Shown here: positions 29,749 to 37,660 of the stretch, in pieces
Position numbering within the stretch: position 1 is the stretch's first letter
How the letters are laid out: each line of letters opens with the position of its first letter
NCBI GenBank assembly: GCA_964535025.1
Contig: CAZHRW010000149.1
Span: forward strand, 11,932-75,931
Direction: 5' to 3'
DNA from: an uncultured Planctomycetales bacterium
GTDB lineage: Bacteria > Planctomycetota > Phycisphaerae > SM23-33 > FEN-1343
Length of the DNA stretch: 64,000 bases
The notes under the pieces: generated by a model
What the model saw: only the letters and a program-made list of their open reading frames with translations
Databases searched by the model: none
What the model was told of the DNA's origin: nothing
Program-made: the position numbers and the translations under genes

Positions 29749-29925
29749 CCCGGCTAAATTCTGTCGCCCCTTTGGGGCTTTGTGCGTAAACGGCGCTCCT
29801 GTCCGGGGACTGGCGCCCCCGGCTAAACTCTGTTGCCCCTTTCGGGGCTTTGTGCGTAAACGGCGCTCCTGTCCGGGGGCTGGCGCCCCCGGCTAAACTC
29901 TGTCGCCCCTTTGGGGCTTTGTCCC
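29749..29925. repeat. 70-bp tandem repeat (about 2.5 copies) inside the 388-bp atpD-atpC spacer; each unit contains CCGGGG(G/A)CTGGCGCCCCCGG
   Basis: Units begin at 29749, 29819 and 29889 (period 70, over 90% identical). Followed at 29956-29975 by the inverted partner CCGGGGGCGCCAGCCCCCGG. Extra direct repeats CAGCCCCGGAGGGGCGG lie at about 29930 and about 29998. Confidence 0.85.
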
Positions 29926-30109
29926 CGTCAGCCCCGGAGGGGCGGCGGAATTTTGCCGGGGGCGCCAGCCCCCGGAAAACGGCTTACGAACACGAGCCAG
30001 CCCCGGAGGGGCGGCATACGTTCCAAGGGGGCGTCAGCCCCCGCCCATCGTCTCCTTTCGTCGCCGCACGCTTGCGTCAAGGGCGGCCCGGGCGCGCGCG
30101 CCGGCTGAA

Positions 30110-33463: not shown

Positions 33464-33548
33464 CGTTCTTTTGAGACCTGAGACGTGAGACCTGAGGCCT
33501 GAGGTACGGCGAGGGCACCCCAAGCTTCACGTCTCAGGCCTGTCTTCC

Positions 33549-34685
33549 TCAGTGATTCTTCGCCCACTTCGCCTTCATTCGCTTCATTTCGTTATTCAGC
33601 GGGACGGGCTTGCCGGGGCACTGTTTGCGTTTTTCGACGCGCCAGCGGCCGTCGTCGTCCTTGCGGACGGGCAGGCGCTTGGCGACGGGGGGGACGCGGC
33701 AGGCGGCGGCGGGCTCGCGGGCGTACCAGTAGGCGACCGAGGCCATCTCGTTGGCCAGGTGGTTGCCGTGCCCGTGCTCGAGGGTGACCTTGATCTCGCG
33801 GGTGAACCGCACCGGGTTCTCCAGGTGGTGGACGTAGGAGGTCTGGTAGCCGCCGGTGTCGGCTTCGTGGAGGCTCGAGCCGTTGCGGGCGAAGGCGTTG
33901 GGCTGCATGCCCCAGGCCTGGTTGAAATAGTCTTCGCTGCCGGTGCCGTGCAGGTCGGGCGGCCACTTGTAGCCGTCCACCCAGATCATGTCGTCGCCCT
34001 CACCCCACCAGGTGCCCTGGAAGTTGGTCACCGAGAGGTTGCAGCCGATGTAATGGCCGGCCCCGCGGGTGTCGAGGATGACGTAGTTGTTCTCCCAGGC
34101 GAGCCGTCCGGCGTTGACGATGTCGGCTTGGGGGGTGTTGACGCGGATCTCGTGGCCCCAGCCGCCGAAGGGGTTGGCGCGGCGGAACTCGGCGTGGAAA
34201 TAGCCCGCGTCGTCGCCGAGCGCCTCGAGGGTCTCGTAATCGATGTAAAAGTACTGTCCCTGATCGGTGTCGCCCTCGTTGATCAGCTCGATCACGGCCC
34301 GCTCGCGGAAGGGCATCGGCGCGTAGCAGTTGAGGGCGCAGCCGGTGTTGAACTGGTTGTTGCGGCTGGTGGAGGCGGTGAACAGCAGCGACTGGTAGGA
34401 GTTGACCAGCCCGTGGCCGAGGCCGAAGAAGTCGCCCAGGGGCACCAGGACGCTGGGGCGTTTGGCGTTGTCCCAGGTGAACTTCAGCAGGCACTGGCGG
34501 TAGCCGGCCCGCTGGGTCATCCACAGGTGCGTGATCCGCCCCGGTCCGGCCAGGTCCGCCAGCACGCGGGATTCGCCGGCCGGGATGATCCAGCGGTCGG
34601 CGTTCCGCCCGGTGGTGTCCCACGACGAAACCCGCCGCGTGCGACGCGAGGGGTCGATGCGTGTCAGTGCGTTCAGGTCGACCAT
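33549..34685 (-). CDS. DUF2961 / glycoside hydrolase family 172-like protein
   Basis: About 380-aa beta-rich protein of this family. Start at the ATG after GAGGAAAGG. Family assignment is by overall pattern only. Confidence 0.55.
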   Translation of the reverse strand: MVDLNALTRIDPSRRTRRVSSWDTTGRNADRWIIPAGESRVLADLAGPGRITHLWMTQRAGYRQCLLKFTWDNAKRPSVLVPLGDFFGLGHGLVNSYQSLLFTASTSRNNQFNTGCALNCYAPMPFRERAVIELINEGDTDQGQYFYIDYETLEALGDDAGYFHAEFRRANPFGGWGHEIRVNTPQADIVNAGRLAWENNYVILDTRGAGHYIGCNLSVTNFQGTWWGEGDDMIWVDGYKWPPDLHGTGSEDYFNQAWGMQPNAFARNGSSLHEADTGGYQTSYVHHLENPVRFTREIKVTLEHGHGNHLANEMASVAYWYAREPAAACRVPPVAKRLPVRKDDDGRWRVEKRKQCPGKPVPLNNEMKRMKAKWAKNH

Positions 34686-34789
34686 GATCGCCTTTCCTCG
34701 AAAGCCCGCCATTGTCCGCGGGCGCCCCGGCGTTTGCGCGCACGGCGATTCTACAAGGTGGGCCGCCGGCCGCAAGGGGGCGCCGGACC

Positions 34790-35626
34790 TTACCGGGCCG
34801 TCCGTCGTCCGACGCTGTCCGACCGGTCCGACCGGTCCGACTTGTCCGACGCGTCCGACTTGTCCGACTTGTCCGACGCGTCTGGTGGGTCCGACGCCTC
34901 CCGGATCCCCTTACACTGGGGATACCCCGAGCAGCCCCAGAATGCCTTGCCGGCGTGAGGGCCCTGCTTGGCGGTGCGCCGGCGCATCGGCTTGCCGCAC
35001 AGCGGGCAGGCGGGCGCATCCGCGGCGGCGTGGCGCGCTTCGGTCCGGGCGGCATGGAGGCGCTCGGTGAAGCCGCCCTGGTCGAGGAACTGGCGGCTCT
35101 GGGCTTCGATCTGCCGCCGCAGGAGATAGGCGGCCTGGTTCACGGCGCACAGCATGGCGTTCGCGGCCAGTTCCGCCTCGGCCTCGGCGACGAACGCCGC
35201 CAGGCCCGCCAGGCCCGTCAGGCGGATCGTCCCCGGCGTCGCCGGCGGGAGGTCGGGCGCGGCATCGTGTTTGAGCCGTTCCCGCATGGCGAGGGCCTGG
35301 GGCGACTCCTTGGGCCAGACCCGCAGGCCGTGCTGGAGGAGAAAAGTCCGATAGTCCTTGAGCAGTTCATCGGAGAGGCTGGCTCGCGCGACATTCGTGA
35401 GCTTCATCTCGGCCTTGCGGCTCGTGGCCGCGGCGCCGATGGCCTCGCTGATATTCCGCACCCCGCTCCGCGCCGCCTGAACCATCTGATCGTGCGTCCG
35501 CGACCGCTTCTCGATGAAACGATCGCAGAACACGACCGTCGCATCGTAAACGGCCTCGGCCACCTTGTAACTGCGAAGCCGCTCATAGCCCCCGTGCGGC
35601 AAGAGGACGGACTCATCGCTGGCCAT
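34790..35626 (-). CDS. Four-helix-bundle protein (Avd / 23S rRNA IVS family) fused to a helical suffix domain, a topoisomerase-type C4 zinc ribbon and a C-terminal Ser-Asp repeat tail
   Basis: N-terminus YKVAEAVYDATVVFCDRFIEKRSRTHDQMVQAARSGVRNISEAIG matches the four-helix-bundle family. CPLCGKPMRRRTAKQGPHAGKAFWGCSGYPQC is a Topo-I-type Zn ribbon. The tail SDPPDASDKSDKSDASDKSDRSDRSD is encoded by the GTCCGAC array. ATG start follows AGGGGAGCA; the track start is a TTG. Confidence 0.7.
   Translation of the reverse strand: MASDESVLLPHGGYERLRSYKVAEAVYDATVVFCDRFIEKRSRTHDQMVQAARSGVRNISEAIGAAATSRKAEMKLTNVARASLSDELLKDYRTFLLQHGLRVWPKESPQALAMRERLKHDAAPDLPPATPGTIRLTGLAGLAAFVAEAEAELAANAMLCAVNQAAYLLRRQIEAQSRQFLDQGGFTERLHAARTEARHAAADAPACPLCGKPMRRRTAKQGPHAGKAFWGCSGYPQCKGIREASDPPDASDKSDKSDASDKSDRSDRSDSVGRRTAR
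34807..34895. repeat. Array C: nine GTCCGAC heptamers at 9-10 bp phasing (inside the 3' end of the CDS; encodes the SD-x repeats)
   Basis: Counted directly: GTCCGAC gct GTCCGAC cg GTCCGAC cg GTCCGAC tt ... . Confidence 0.9.
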
Positions 35627-35671
35627 GGTAGTGCTCCCCTGCGTTTCCAAAGGTCAAGGACGGATCGACCT

Positions 35672-35753
35672 GTCGGACGGCGTCAGACGGGTCGGACAGG
35701 TCAGATGGGTCTGACGGTGTCGGACAGGTCAGACAGGTCCGACAATGTCGGAC
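35672..35753. repeat. Array A: nine GTC(N)GAC palindromic heptamers (mostly GTCGGAC/GTCAGAC) at 9-10 bp phasing, upstream of the four-helix-bundle gene
   Basis: Counted directly; opposite orientation bias to arrays B and C. Confidence 0.9.
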
Positions 35754-35861
35754 GATTTGGGCTCACGCGGCCCATCGGATATTGGACCCCTGCGGGGGAC
35801 ACCTGTCAAGCCGCGCCATAGCGGAAAAACCGCCCCCGAATCGTCCACGCGAGTCTCTGCT

Positions 35862-36016
35862 GTCCGACGCTGTCTGACCGGTCGGACGAGTCCGACCTGT
35901 CCGACGCCGTCTGACGCGTCAGACGAGTCCGACCCGTCCGACGCCGTCTGAGCCGTCAGACGAGTCCGACCCGTCCGACGCTGTCTGACCTGTCTGACGA
36001 GTCCGACCTGTCCGAC
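35862..36016. repeat. Array B: seventeen GTC(N)GAC heptamers with a regular 3-2-2-2 nt spacer pattern (37-bp supra-unit; one 36-bp block duplicated)
   Basis: Counted directly. The central base N is A, C, G or T. Not frame-preserving (supra-period 37). Confidence 0.9.
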
Positions 36017-36099
36017 GCCGTCCGTGCGGCGCGGCCGCCACCAATGGCTATAATAGCCAAATAAGGCCGCGCGTTCACGCTCGCGAGGGCGCGATGAAC

Positions 36100-36470
36100 A
36101 AAATGAAAGCAAACCACAACAAAATACGGCCGGCGCTCAATAAAATGAAGGCAGCGTTAAACAATGTGCACGACCGGCCCAATAAACTGACATATTCCCC
36201 CAATAAAAGAAAGCCCCGAGTCGCCCCGTGCGCGCCCCGGGGGTCTGGGTAAGCTGGGTAAAATATCCGAGAATTCGGGTTTTATGCCGGATGCAAGGCG
36301 CGCGCATCTATGTGGGGACAGGATATGAGAAAAAACCCCTCGGACGCACCCTCCGGCGTTAAGCTGGGCAAGCTGGGGGCTCTGCGGCGTCGCGGCGCCC
36401 GGAGAATTCGGGTTTTATGCCGTTAAACTGGGTAAGATACCGGAGAATTCCGGTTTTATGCCGTCTCGAT
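36100..36470. repeat. AT-rich noncoding island with several direct-repeat families: CAATAAA-type repeats, AAGCTGGGTAA-type repeats, and three copies of a 23-bp element CCG(R)GAATTC(S)GGTTTTATGCCG (short hairpin plus T-tract)
   Basis: Copies at about 36267-36289, 36398-36422 and 36439-36463. Local GC is far below the 70% background. No ORF with protein-like composition. Confidence 0.7.
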
Positions 36471-36727
36471 GCCGTCAAAACGGCCGAAAACGAGGAGCAT
36501 TTTCGAGTATCCTGTCACTGAATGCGGGGGAGCTGGACGGGGCCGACCGGGGCGGCGGGGCCGTCCGGGTCTCGGCGCCGCTCGAAGGCCCCGGCACGGC
36601 CGGCCGGGCAGAAGGGCCGCCGCGGGCGGGCCCTTGCATTGGACGGGCGTTGAGGGTACGAGGGGCCTTCACCCAACGAAGGGCCGCGACGGCGGCCGGG
36701 GCGGACCCCGGGCGCGGCGCGGCTAAC

Positions 36728-37660
36728 ATGAGAAAAACCATGGACTTCCCCGCCCTCGACGACGCCACGCGCCTCGCCCGGCTCACACCGCCGGCCGGGG
36801 CGGTCGAGATGGTGCTCGACACCGACACGTACAATGAGATCGACGATCAGTTCGCCGTGGCCTACGCGCTCCTGTCGCCCGAGCGGCTCAACGTGCGGGC
36901 CCTGTATGCCGCCCCGTTCCACAACAACCGCTCCAGCGGTCCAGGTGACGGTATGATCAAGAGTTACGAGGAGATCGGCCGCCTGCTCGAGCGGATGGGA
37001 CGCTCGGGCGACGGCCTGGTTTTCCGCGGCTCCGAGCGGTACCTGGGCGGCGCCGACGAGCCCGTCGACAGCGACGCGGCGAGGGACCTGGTGGCTCGGG
37101 GGATGGCCGATCGGGACGGACCGCTGTATGTGGTTGCGATCGGGGCGATTACGAACGTCGCCTCGGCGCTGCTGATCGAGCCGCGCCTCGTCGAGCGGGT
37201 CGTCGTCGTCTGGCTGGGCGGTCAGCCGCACTACTGGCACACGGCCCGCGAGTTCAACCTCAGCCAGGACCTCCACGCCGCACGCGTTATCCTTGGATCC
37301 GGCGTACCTTTCGGTCACATCCCCTGCACGCACGTGGCCCAGTTGCTCCGCACGACGGCCGGCGAGTTGAGGACGGACATGGGCGATGCCGGGCCGGTCG
37401 GTAAGTTCCTTCTGCAGCGTTTCTTGGAATATCGCGAGGACCTCTTCGCGTGGGCGAAGGAGATCTGGGACCTCGCGCCGATCGCGTGGCTGGTCAATCC
37501 GTCGTGGCTGCCATCGACGGTGGTTCACACCCCGCGGCTGACCGACCAGCACACCTGGTCGCCCGACCCGTTCGCCCCGCTGATGCGCGTGGCGATCGAC
37601 TGCAACCGCAACGCGATCTTCGCCGACGTGTTCGGCAAGCTCAACGCGGCGGAAACCTAA
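36728..37660 (+). CDS. Nucleoside hydrolase (IUNH family)
   Basis: VLDTDTYNEIDDQFA is the DxDxxxDD aspartate cluster of inosine-uridine nucleoside hydrolases. Unusually long upstream noncoding region, about 600 bp. Confidence 0.75.
   Translation: MRKTMDFPALDDATRLARLTPPAGAVEMVLDTDTYNEIDDQFAVAYALLSPERLNVRALYAAPFHNNRSSGPGDGMIKSYEEIGRLLERMGRSGDGLVFRGSERYLGGADEPVDSDAARDLVARGMADRDGPLYVVAIGAITNVASALLIEPRLVERVVVVWLGGQPHYWHTAREFNLSQDLHAARVILGSGVPFGHIPCTHVAQLLRTTAGELRTDMGDAGPVGKFLLQRFLEYREDLFAWAKEIWDLAPIAWLVNPSWLPSTVVHTPRLTDQHTWSPDPFAPLMRVAIDCNRNAIFADVFGKLNAAET

Follow-up and report, generated by a model that had tools for sequence, protein, structure and literature searches.

A candidate small-ORF cassette with a conserved 23-nucleotide motif tail in an intergenic repeat island of a Planctomycetota-like contig

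Introduction

The DNA analyzed here, referred to as the window, is a stretch of 64,000 nucleotides (nt) from an uncultured Planctomycetales bacterium (assembly GCA_964535025.1, contig CAZHRW010000149.1, positions 11,932 to 75,931 of the forward strand). It is a Planctomycetota-like contig of 69% GC, and a 1.1-kb intergenic region upstream of its nucleoside hydrolase gene holds an island of short direct repeats. The question raised by this locus is whether such repeats are signals belonging to the hydrolase gene, binding sites for a protein, the relic of a mobile element, or parts of a unit with a product of its own. An earlier note on this DNA had seen three repeat families in a noncoding, strongly AT-rich patch and had offered a cluster of tiny transcription units, an attenuator-type leader, or a phage attachment relic as possible explanations.

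The answer developed below is that the island (~36046-36519) is one member, and the sole copy in the window, of a family of ~475-nt modules. Comparison of the members leads us to favor a reading, to which we give about an even chance, in which the island is an autonomous cassette that would produce a rightward mRNA with a small open reading frame (ORF) followed by a conserved non-coding tail of sequence motifs. To our knowledge, small proteins and regulatory RNAs have hardly been charted in Planctomycetota.

Results

Composition and authenticity of the island

The three repeat families described in the earlier note were all recovered where it had placed them. The 23-mer CSGAGAATTCSGGTTTTATGCCG has three copies (36267-36289, 36400-36422, and 36441-36463), and no further match occurs in the window when up to 3 mismatches are allowed (0 expected from 100 shuffles). 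A repeat search and a pattern search with AAYAAARTGAAR place the copies of the CAATAAAATGAA family between 36093 and 36213, at start-to-start distances of 42, 42, and 21 nt, and the AAGCTGGGTAA family is located at 36245-36264, 36360-36377, and 36424-36438. The drop in GC content is real, at 0.51-0.62 over 36000-36500 versus 0.69 window-wide, although the AT-richness is moderate and not extreme. Likewise, the TGGGTAA(A/G)AT box said to precede each 23-mer stands directly 5' of copies 1 and 3 only (TAAAAT or TAAGAT, 4-5 nt upstream); at copy 2, a 22-nt GC-rich insertion separates the box from the 23-mer. An assembly artifact, which would have explained the island away, is not the case, because two independent assemblies reproduce it: the JGI contig L002, which belongs to the same organism, is 99.9% identical to the window across the island without gaps, and from 36434 the Logan contig L003 shows 100% identity.

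A family of homologous modules

A metagenome scan with the 23-mer identified ten further contigs with recognizably homologous modules, plus four isolated chance-like matches, and look-ups with the small ORF described below added two more copies. Modules are placed in this way on about 12 short contigs (L006, L011, L013, L015 to L019, L021, L022, L024, L063, and L064), and they share 65-75% identity. Seven copies, termed type A, align end to end over ~475 nt, from a TGCTATAAWAGC box to CTGTC(A/C)C. Their order is the TGCTATAAWAGC box, four to six 21-nt repeats, and then 40-nt units that each end in the 23-mer; a TCTATAnGGGGACGG box and a TTCGCGATTGCG hairpin are interspersed in the tail, and the module ends with a GAAAAC..GTTTTC hairpin and GTAnnCTGTCCC. 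Type-B copies consist of the same blocks reshuffled (21-mers, two 23-mers, and 21-mers again), and L024 is a further variant. Throughout, all motifs keep a single orientation relative to the promoter-like box at the 5' end. In the window, the module is laid out as follows.

36046-36058, plus strand: 5' box GGCTATAATAGCC, unique in the window, containing the -10 hexamer TATAAT at 36049-36054
36085-36089, plus strand: Shine-Dalgarno-like GAGGG, read from the sequence and separated by 4 nt from the ATG at 36094
36094-36252, plus strand: ORF of 52 amino acids, MNKMKANHNKIRPALNKMKAALNNVHDRPNKLTYSPNKRKPRVAPCAPRGSG, with six 21-nt (7-codon) units at 36094-36219 that correspond to the CAATAAAATGAA repeat family
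36244-36289, plus strand: tail unit 1, a CTGGGTAAGCTGGGTAAAAT box and then 23-mer copy 1 (36267-36289)
36290-36308, plus strand: small hairpin GATGC-N9-GCATC, which reads GACGC...GCGTC in homologues
36314-36326, plus strand: 5' arm of a long-range pairing, GGGGACAGGATAT, an inverted repeat; homologues have the TCTATAnGGGGACGG box in common
36358-36422, plus strand: tail unit 2, a GTTAAGCTGGGCAAG box, the 22-nt GC-rich insertion (36378-36399), and 23-mer copy 2 (36400-36422)
36423-36463, plus strand: tail unit 3, a TTAAACTGGGTAAGATAC box and then 23-mer copy 3 (36441-36463)
36485-36505, plus strand: small AU-rich hairpin CGAAAA-N9-TTTTCG near the module 3' end, conserved in position (CCAAA...TTTGG in L016)
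36507-36519, plus strand: 3' arm of the long-range pairing, GTATCCTGTCACT / GTATCCTGTCAC, the last block conserved among modules

As the last block conserved, GTATCCTGTCACT marks the 3' boundary of the module. At the other, 5' end, the box at the position of GGCTATAATAGCC is the sole block conserved throughout the seven type-A modules. Its homologues read TGCTATAAT or TGCTATAAA, which are of the extended -10 type and conserved as TGnTATAAT, and the region contains no good -10 other than the TATAAT at 36049-36054.

The modules occupy unrelated intergenic sites in related Planctomycetota. Their flanks are unrelated between contigs (enolase, lipoprotein, and other genes, and in one case a membrane-protein gene followed by an RecA-like N terminus, judged by eye), and the downstream gene is usually convergent. 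A hydrolase gene lies downstream of the modules in L006, L021, and L063, all from one study, and is not beside the other module copies. In these three contigs, the 3' parts of the modules are near-identical while the 5' heptad regions and upstream genes differ, a pattern that reflects recombination among module copies or, alternatively, chimeric assembly at the repeats. Short-read assemblies break at module copies.

So far, modules are restricted to a few saline-sediment-type metagenomes. A scan of reference-genome contigs with the ATG variant of the 23-mer, which misses GTG-type copies, gave one chance match, in a Bacteroidales metagenome-assembled genome (MAG), and viral collections, when scanned with the 23-mer core or a pair of phased 21-mers, yielded isolated chance matches or coiled-coil genes of AT-rich viruses and nothing else. 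Reading the module ends by eye, which is not an exhaustive search, revealed no terminal inverted repeats or target-site duplications, and no rep, par, transposase, or integrase genes adjoin the island in the window or the modules in homologous contigs. A weak match to a group II intron domain (RF00029, 26 bits, E 0.17) lies upstream of the type-B module in L013 (458-554, minus strand), and a tRNA suspected by eye beside the L017 module was not confirmed by ARAGORN.

The two checks that the earlier note had proposed for the 23-bp element thus gave different outcomes. Searching for it elsewhere revealed the homologous modules on metagenome contigs, with none further in the window. The covariance search found no Rfam family inside the modules, with the limit set at the gathering threshold for the window, at E ≤ 10 for the island region, and at E ≤ 1 for 11 homologous loci. 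No described family was found for the module in Rfam, Pfam, NCBIfam, PHROGs, or PADLOC, and literature searches returned nothing relevant.

The small heptad-repeat ORF

The best reading of the CAATAAA/CAATAAAATGAA repeats is as the codons of a small ORF made of heptads, and the island is probably not wholly non-coding. In 12 of 12 modules examined, the 21-nt repeats are exactly 21 or 42 nt apart, and indels in the repeat region are of 21 nt only. Across 76 units, information content is highest at codon position 2 (1.33 bits), followed by position 1 (0.85 bits) and position 3 (0.56 bits), and a label permutation test of this pattern gives P = 0.0007. Conservation peaks at the second positions (T, A, T, A) of the a, b, d, and e codons, and the repeat frame across modules reads [L/F/I/V/M]-[N/H/K]-[K/I/F]-[M/V/I/L]-[K/N/H]-x-x. 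Residues L, F, I, V, and M at the a and d positions are reached through varied NTN codons, with synonymous TTG/CTT swaps between L017 and L064.

In most module copies, the frame has a start codon and remains open, and homologous small ORFs are found (P0241 to P0245, P0248, and P0257); some type-B ORFs have a common start (MNIMKP) and stop position. The ORF at 36094-36252 is intact, and the JGI annotation calls it as a gene in L002. Three features expected of a small coding ORF are present (an open frame with a start, indels phased by 3 nt, and conservation in the order of codon positions 2 > 1 > 3), with in-frame stops in two homologues, whereas the codon usage is not typical of the host.

The predicted peptide, basic and amphipathic, lacks a transmembrane segment, and AlphaFold2 (AF2) models a helix over residues 3-26 at low confidence (pLDDT 64). 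Profile searches returned few relatives of the ORF among billions of proteins, all from the same sample type, and neither Pfam, NCBIfam, PHROGs, nor PADLOC gave a significant match for the small ORFs (best E-values 0.004-5).

A further arrangement is seen in the type-B modules of L013, L015, L017, L022, and L064, in which a second heptad ORF (MPGVAASP..LNKVK..; P0241 and P0243) is called from an ATG or GTG that lies in the last 23-mer, 12 nt downstream of a GGAG. In P0246, the first and second ORFs are fused in a single frame. ORFs initiated at the 23-mers were also considered for the type-A copies and rejected, being broken there by 1-nt indels and early stops.

The conserved non-coding tail

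The conserved blocks downstream of the ORF carry 1-nt indels and use all three frames across copies, and the tail is therefore considered non-coding. Its most constant part is the 23-mer, with the nearly invariant consensus cGGAGwATTCsGGTTTTrTGCCG, in which the T-tract falls within an almost invariant GGTTTTRTGCC and the invariant positions are GA..ATTC.G..TTT.TG.C. Homologues carry extra GAGWATTC sub-repeats in place of the unit-2 insertion of the window.

Folded as RNA, tail unit 1 gives an imperfect 33-nt hairpin (-11.8 kcal/mol, z -3.3), and the hairpin of tail unit 3 reaches -14.8 kcal/mol (z -3.8). A conserved hairpin with the TGGGTAAGATA box and the GGTTTTATGCC tract as its arms was nevertheless rejected; such pairing holds for window copies 1 and 3, with no family-wide covariation. 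As the 3' arm is almost invariant, the extended hairpin offers no covariation, and the 23-mer therefore appears to behave as a recognition sequence, a conserved sequence motif rather than a conserved hairpin.

At the level of the whole module, there is modest support for a structure that would include the long-range pairing. The 3' halves of the modules fold better than dinucleotide shuffles (z about -2.3), to a similar extent on both strands. In the consensus structure of the seven modules, 88% of cells are paired versus 84.6% in shuffles, covariation is 0.185 versus 0.132 (reached in 0 of 500 shuffles), and seven pairs show double changes (17 of 500 shuffles). The long-range helix has 11 pairs with 87% of cells paired, and one of its positions varies between A-U, G-U, and G-C. 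In the GATGC/GCATC hairpin, the window has the sole compensatory change, from C-G to U-A. Fold energy was also tried as a means of strand assignment; the plus strand is always more stable, a difference that is explained by its G+U composition, and the assignment was dropped.

The locus and relatives without the island

The intergenic region separates minus-strand genes (23.6-35.6 kb) from plus-strand genes (36.7-43.6 kb). To its left, the minus strand encodes MarC, a DUF2961 protein, and a "four helix bundle suffix" protein that contains a topoisomerase-type zinc ribbon. On its right is the nucleoside hydrolase, whose correct start is the MDFP ATG at 36740 and whose nearest homologues are annotated as Planctomycetota MAGs. 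Two features of this region lie outside the module.

35672-36016, minus strand: GTCNGAC arrays, which flank the promoter of the four-helix-bundle-suffix gene
36634-36662, plus strand: hydrolase promoter (TTGCAT 36634-36639, 17-nt spacer, TACGAG 36657-36662), conserved in L004, L005, L006, and L008, with the island present or not

The hydrolase promoter and a conserved 5' untranslated region (UTR) occupy 36634-36739, 3' of the island. The MAG contigs L004 and L005 (hydrolase 82-83% identical) keep the gene order ATP synthase, DksA, MarC, hydrolase, YlbF, and RNase R, with a PEBP gene in place of the DUF2961 gene, the four-helix-bundle cassette, and the island of the window. They retain the CTTGCAT-N17-TGTACGA block and the ensuing 5' UTR ~100 nt 5' of the start codon, from which it follows that the hydrolase owns a conserved promoter and that the island is an optional upstream insert, not a noncoding or attenuator leader of the hydrolase. 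In L006 (hydrolase 82% identical), a homologous island is found at the equivalent place, such that its presence is patchy among close relatives. The segment from MarC to the hydrolase promoter is accordingly a variable islet (window 33530-36625; L005 4957-5860; L004 1-790), and a PEBP remnant sought in the window was not found.

The ATG in 23-mer copy 3 (36458) opens a 400-codon frame (36458-37660, plus strand) that runs in phase into the hydrolase gene. Its phase is lost in L006, and it was rejected as a chance product of high GC.

The GTCNGAC arrays are part of the four-helix-bundle cassette and not of the island. On the minus strand, the promoter of the four-helix-bundle-suffix gene is TTGACA (35809-35804), a 17-nt spacer, and TCCAAT (35786-35781). 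In L009, a related MAG, an array, a TTGACA-N17-TyCAAT promoter, an array, and the same gene follow one another at an unrelated locus, and arrays likewise flank the gene in L010. The possibility that the island travels with this gene was rejected, as L009 and L010 have gene and arrays without the island. The 9-10-nt GTCNGAC unit brackets both ends of the gene (window 34790-36016, minus strand; L009 3730-4795; L010 3948-4795), forming non-coding arrays around the promoter, while in-frame copies encode a C-terminal SDK/SDR tail. In both the window and L009, a tail of SD tripeptides encoded by GTCGGACNN ends the gene. The protein is 70-78% identical across the PVC (Planctomycetes-Verrucomicrobia-Chlamydiae) phyla and Armatimonadota, and this identity, together with recurrence at unrelated loci, suggests that gene and arrays form a mobile or recombining gene cassette. 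In array 2 (window 35862-36016; L002 1434-1559), L002 has one 37-bp super-repeat fewer, which is either a copy-number polymorphism or an assembly collapse.

Elsewhere in the window, two Acido-Lenti-1 RNA matches (RF01687) above the gathering score are inverted and 12 nt apart (29873-29918, plus strand; 29930-29975, minus strand), and a further near-threshold match to this family is found in L013 (700-744).

Discussion

A self-contained cassette as the favored reading

When these observations are placed together, it can be hypothesized that the extended -10-type box (TATAAT, 36049-36054) drives a single rightward transcript of ~450-470 nt. Following a short leader between box and ORF, the 5' third of this mRNA would be translated from GAGGG-N4-ATG (36094) into a basic peptide of 52 amino acids, built of heptads [L/F/I/V/M]-N-K-[M/V/I/L]-K-x-x. 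The 3' two-thirds (~270 nt) would be non-coding and would carry three ~40-nt units that each end in a 23-mer, with units 2 and 3 sitting between the complementary GGGGACAGGATAT (36314-36326) and GTATCCTGTCAC (36507-36519). At what is the weakest step of the scheme, the 23-mers may serve as sequence-specific recognition sites in RNA, or possibly in DNA, for which either the cassette-encoded peptide or a host factor might be the partner. It is conceivable that the outcome is control of the stability or translation of the cassette transcript, or a role as a riboregulator. Of the proposals in the earlier note, what stands, in a loose sense, is that the island looks independent, is probably transcribed, and has a patchy, mobile-like presence; what falls is the cluster of tiny transcription units.

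A more specific version may be put forward only tentatively. Here the modules would represent a new peptide-plus-RNA system confined to a lineage of Planctomycetota, in which a cationic heptad peptide and a 23-nt recognition array are combined on one transcript and act as a selfish, toxin-antitoxin-like addiction module or an autoregulatory switch that spreads and decays between genes.

Several observations weigh against a cassette that is transcribed, translated, and structured in this way. At its 5' end, there is no conserved -35 element, and a two-hexamer promoter scan of 35500-36900 reports nothing; a terminator scan of the same segment finds 0, against 1.6 expected in shuffles, which leaves the 3' end undefined. 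Within the ORF, in-frame stops occur in the heptads of two homologous copies (L019 and L064 ORF1), several type-B tails are frameshifted though the DNA motif AACTGTCCC persists, Shine-Dalgarno spacing is poor in several homologues, and the heptads of the window itself are degenerate, with M, H, L, L, P, and P at the a positions. Codon usage is also peculiar. The repeat units are dominated by AAT, AAA, ATT, and TTT codons; codon 3 is AAA and never AAG (A in 52 of 76 units, G in 0 of 76), and AAT is as common as AAC at codon 2, though the ORFs of this genome mostly have a GC content at third codon positions of ~0.9. This bias toward AAA and AAT points to an extra constraint at the nucleotide level or to a foreign origin. 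With regard to RNA structure, the extended hairpin of the 40-nt unit is paired to 70.7% in 33 units versus 71.6% in shuffles, the RNAalifold covariation term is slightly unfavorable (+2.35), and the covariation of the consensus structure comes from only seven related sequences, with the structure derived from the same alignment. Finally, the homologues all come from a few metagenomes and need not represent several copies within one genome.

Alternative explanations

Part of this counterevidence would be expected if the modules were a non-coding, dispersed mosaic repeat, selfish or structural and similar to BOX elements, miniature inverted-repeat transposable elements (MITEs), or repetitive extragenic palindromic (REP) elements, with heptads that are a coding relic without a present product. 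Number and order of the sub-repeats vary (type A, type B, and the L024 variant), some copies have premature stops or frameshifts, the loci are unrelated, short-read assemblies break at the copies, and presence is patchy among close relatives. A relic would not, however, readily account for the persistence, in divergent copies, of both the 2 > 1 > 3 order of codon conservation and the hydrophobic a/d pattern, nor for the open frame and start codon of most copies or the promoter-like box conserved at one end. The module ends, as far as they were read, lack inverted repeats and target-site duplications, and identities of 65-75% are unlike the near-identical copies left by recent transposition. 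We regard this explanation as unlikely on balance. A quite unlikely one is that the island acts as DNA, as an array of iterons, operators, centromere sites, or transposase sites in an origin, partition site, or regulatory region. The direct repeats of 21 and 23 bp would suit such an array, as would their near-whole-turn spacings (21 and 42 for the 21-mers; 23, 31-33, and 41 for the 23-mers), the AT-rich setting, the conservation of the 23-mer by sequence and not by structure, and fold z-scores that are alike on both strands. Yet no rep, par, transposase, or integrase gene adjoins the island or its homologues, DnaA boxes are missing from the island, the GC skew does not turn, and equally close relatives have the same locus without it. 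Moreover, period-3 conservation at second codon positions is unexpected for a binding site, and the motifs all face one way relative to the promoter box.

The model of the earlier note, in which a TGGGTAAAAT -10 box, a GAATTC hairpin, and a T-tract terminator make up each of three mini transcription units or in which the island is an attenuator leader of the hydrolase, is largely refuted by the comparative data, and we consider it very improbable. It can draw on the TAAAAT/TAAGAT box 4-5 nt upstream of copies 1 and 3 and on the GGAG of each 23-mer, which is followed 12 nt later by an ATG or GTG that, in type-B modules, starts a called second small ORF (P0241 and P0243). The boxes are, however, not conserved, as homologues read GCAGAC, GCAAGC, GCAAAG, GTAAGC, or GAAGAC in their place, and the ORFs started at the 23-mers are not conserved in type A. 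The supposed terminators have apical stems of 4-5 bp and none passes the scan; their TTTT run precedes the invariant RTGCC and hence is part of the motif or of a lower stem. As for attenuation, the hydrolase promoter lies 3' of the island and is conserved without it, and in most homologues the gene downstream is convergent. Least probable of all, and in our view scarcely tenable, is a chromosomal replication origin or the attachment relic of a prophage or integrative element. An AT-rich repeat island between divergently oriented gene blocks would fit its outline, but at 36 kb the GC skew shows no inflection, DnaA boxes are matched no more often than by chance and never within the island, and neither rep nor dnaA is encoded nearby. 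There is also no tRNA in the window or related contigs, no integrase or phage gene nearby, and nothing beyond chance matches in viral collections, and the island is missing from the syntenic locus of L004 and L005.

Comparison with known systems

The self-contained cassette favored here is a concrete and bounded candidate with a dozen homologues, and it is open to synthesis. If it proves to be merely a decaying mosaic repeat, the finding would be an ordinary one. The annotation of the locus is also corrected on three points: a separate, conserved promoter serves the hydrolase, the GTCNGAC arrays are part of the four-helix-bundle cassette, and a codon-phased repeat lay hidden in an AT-rich, "non-coding" island of a 69% GC genome.

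Among described elements, two kinds of repeat-based systems can be compared with the module. BOX elements of Streptococcus pneumoniae are shorter than the module, lack a promoter box and an ORF, and reach >100 near-identical copies in a genome. The module resembles them in its several sub-repeat families, variable copy number, many intergenic loci, and hairpin potential, and differs in the 65-75% identity of its copies and in its promoter-like box and ORF. Iteron plasmid origins similarly combine an AT-rich stretch with tandem direct repeats of ~21-23 bp, whereas the module has no adjacent rep gene or DnaA boxes, has codon-like 21-mers, and is found at many chromosomal sites. Csr/Rsm sponge RNAs (CsrB and RsmZ) were also considered, as the module would be an RNA with several Shine-Dalgarno-like GGAG motifs in or near hairpin tops. 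Its core is instead GAGWATTC...GGTTTTRTGCC, and GGA is missing from several copies (CGAGTATTC and AGAGAATTC) and otherwise lies in a stem. The A(N)GGA loop motif that defines these sponges is thus absent, and this assignment was rejected.

Other parallels may be found where a peptide and an RNA are combined. In type I toxin-antitoxin loci (hok/sok, ldr/rdl, and fst/RNAII of par-pAD1), self-contained units of 400-600 nt encode a peptide of ~50 amino acids, are multi-copy and patchy with some copies inactivated by stops, and show long-range pairing in the mRNA, features that the module, in its predicted form, would share. In the par locus of pAD1, direct repeats serve as sites of RNA-RNA interaction. 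The module differs in that its predicted peptide is basic and amphipathic without a hydrophobic transmembrane stretch or homology to a known toxin family, and inspection of the seven-module alignment revealed no evident conserved promoter on the minus strand for an antisense RNA. With dual-function and small-ORF RNAs (SgrS/SgrT, RNAIII/hld, and SR1/SR1P), the module has in common a stand-alone intergenic unit of a few hundred nt, an apparent promoter of its own, an ORF of at most ~60 codons, and a conserved non-coding portion that is longer and could form pairings. It is unrelated to them by sequence or in Rfam, its ORF is 5' and made of tandem repeats, and its tail is an array of a 23-nt motif. 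In kind, the module resembles small-ORF and dual-function RNAs, type I toxin-antitoxin loci, and BOX-like mosaics.

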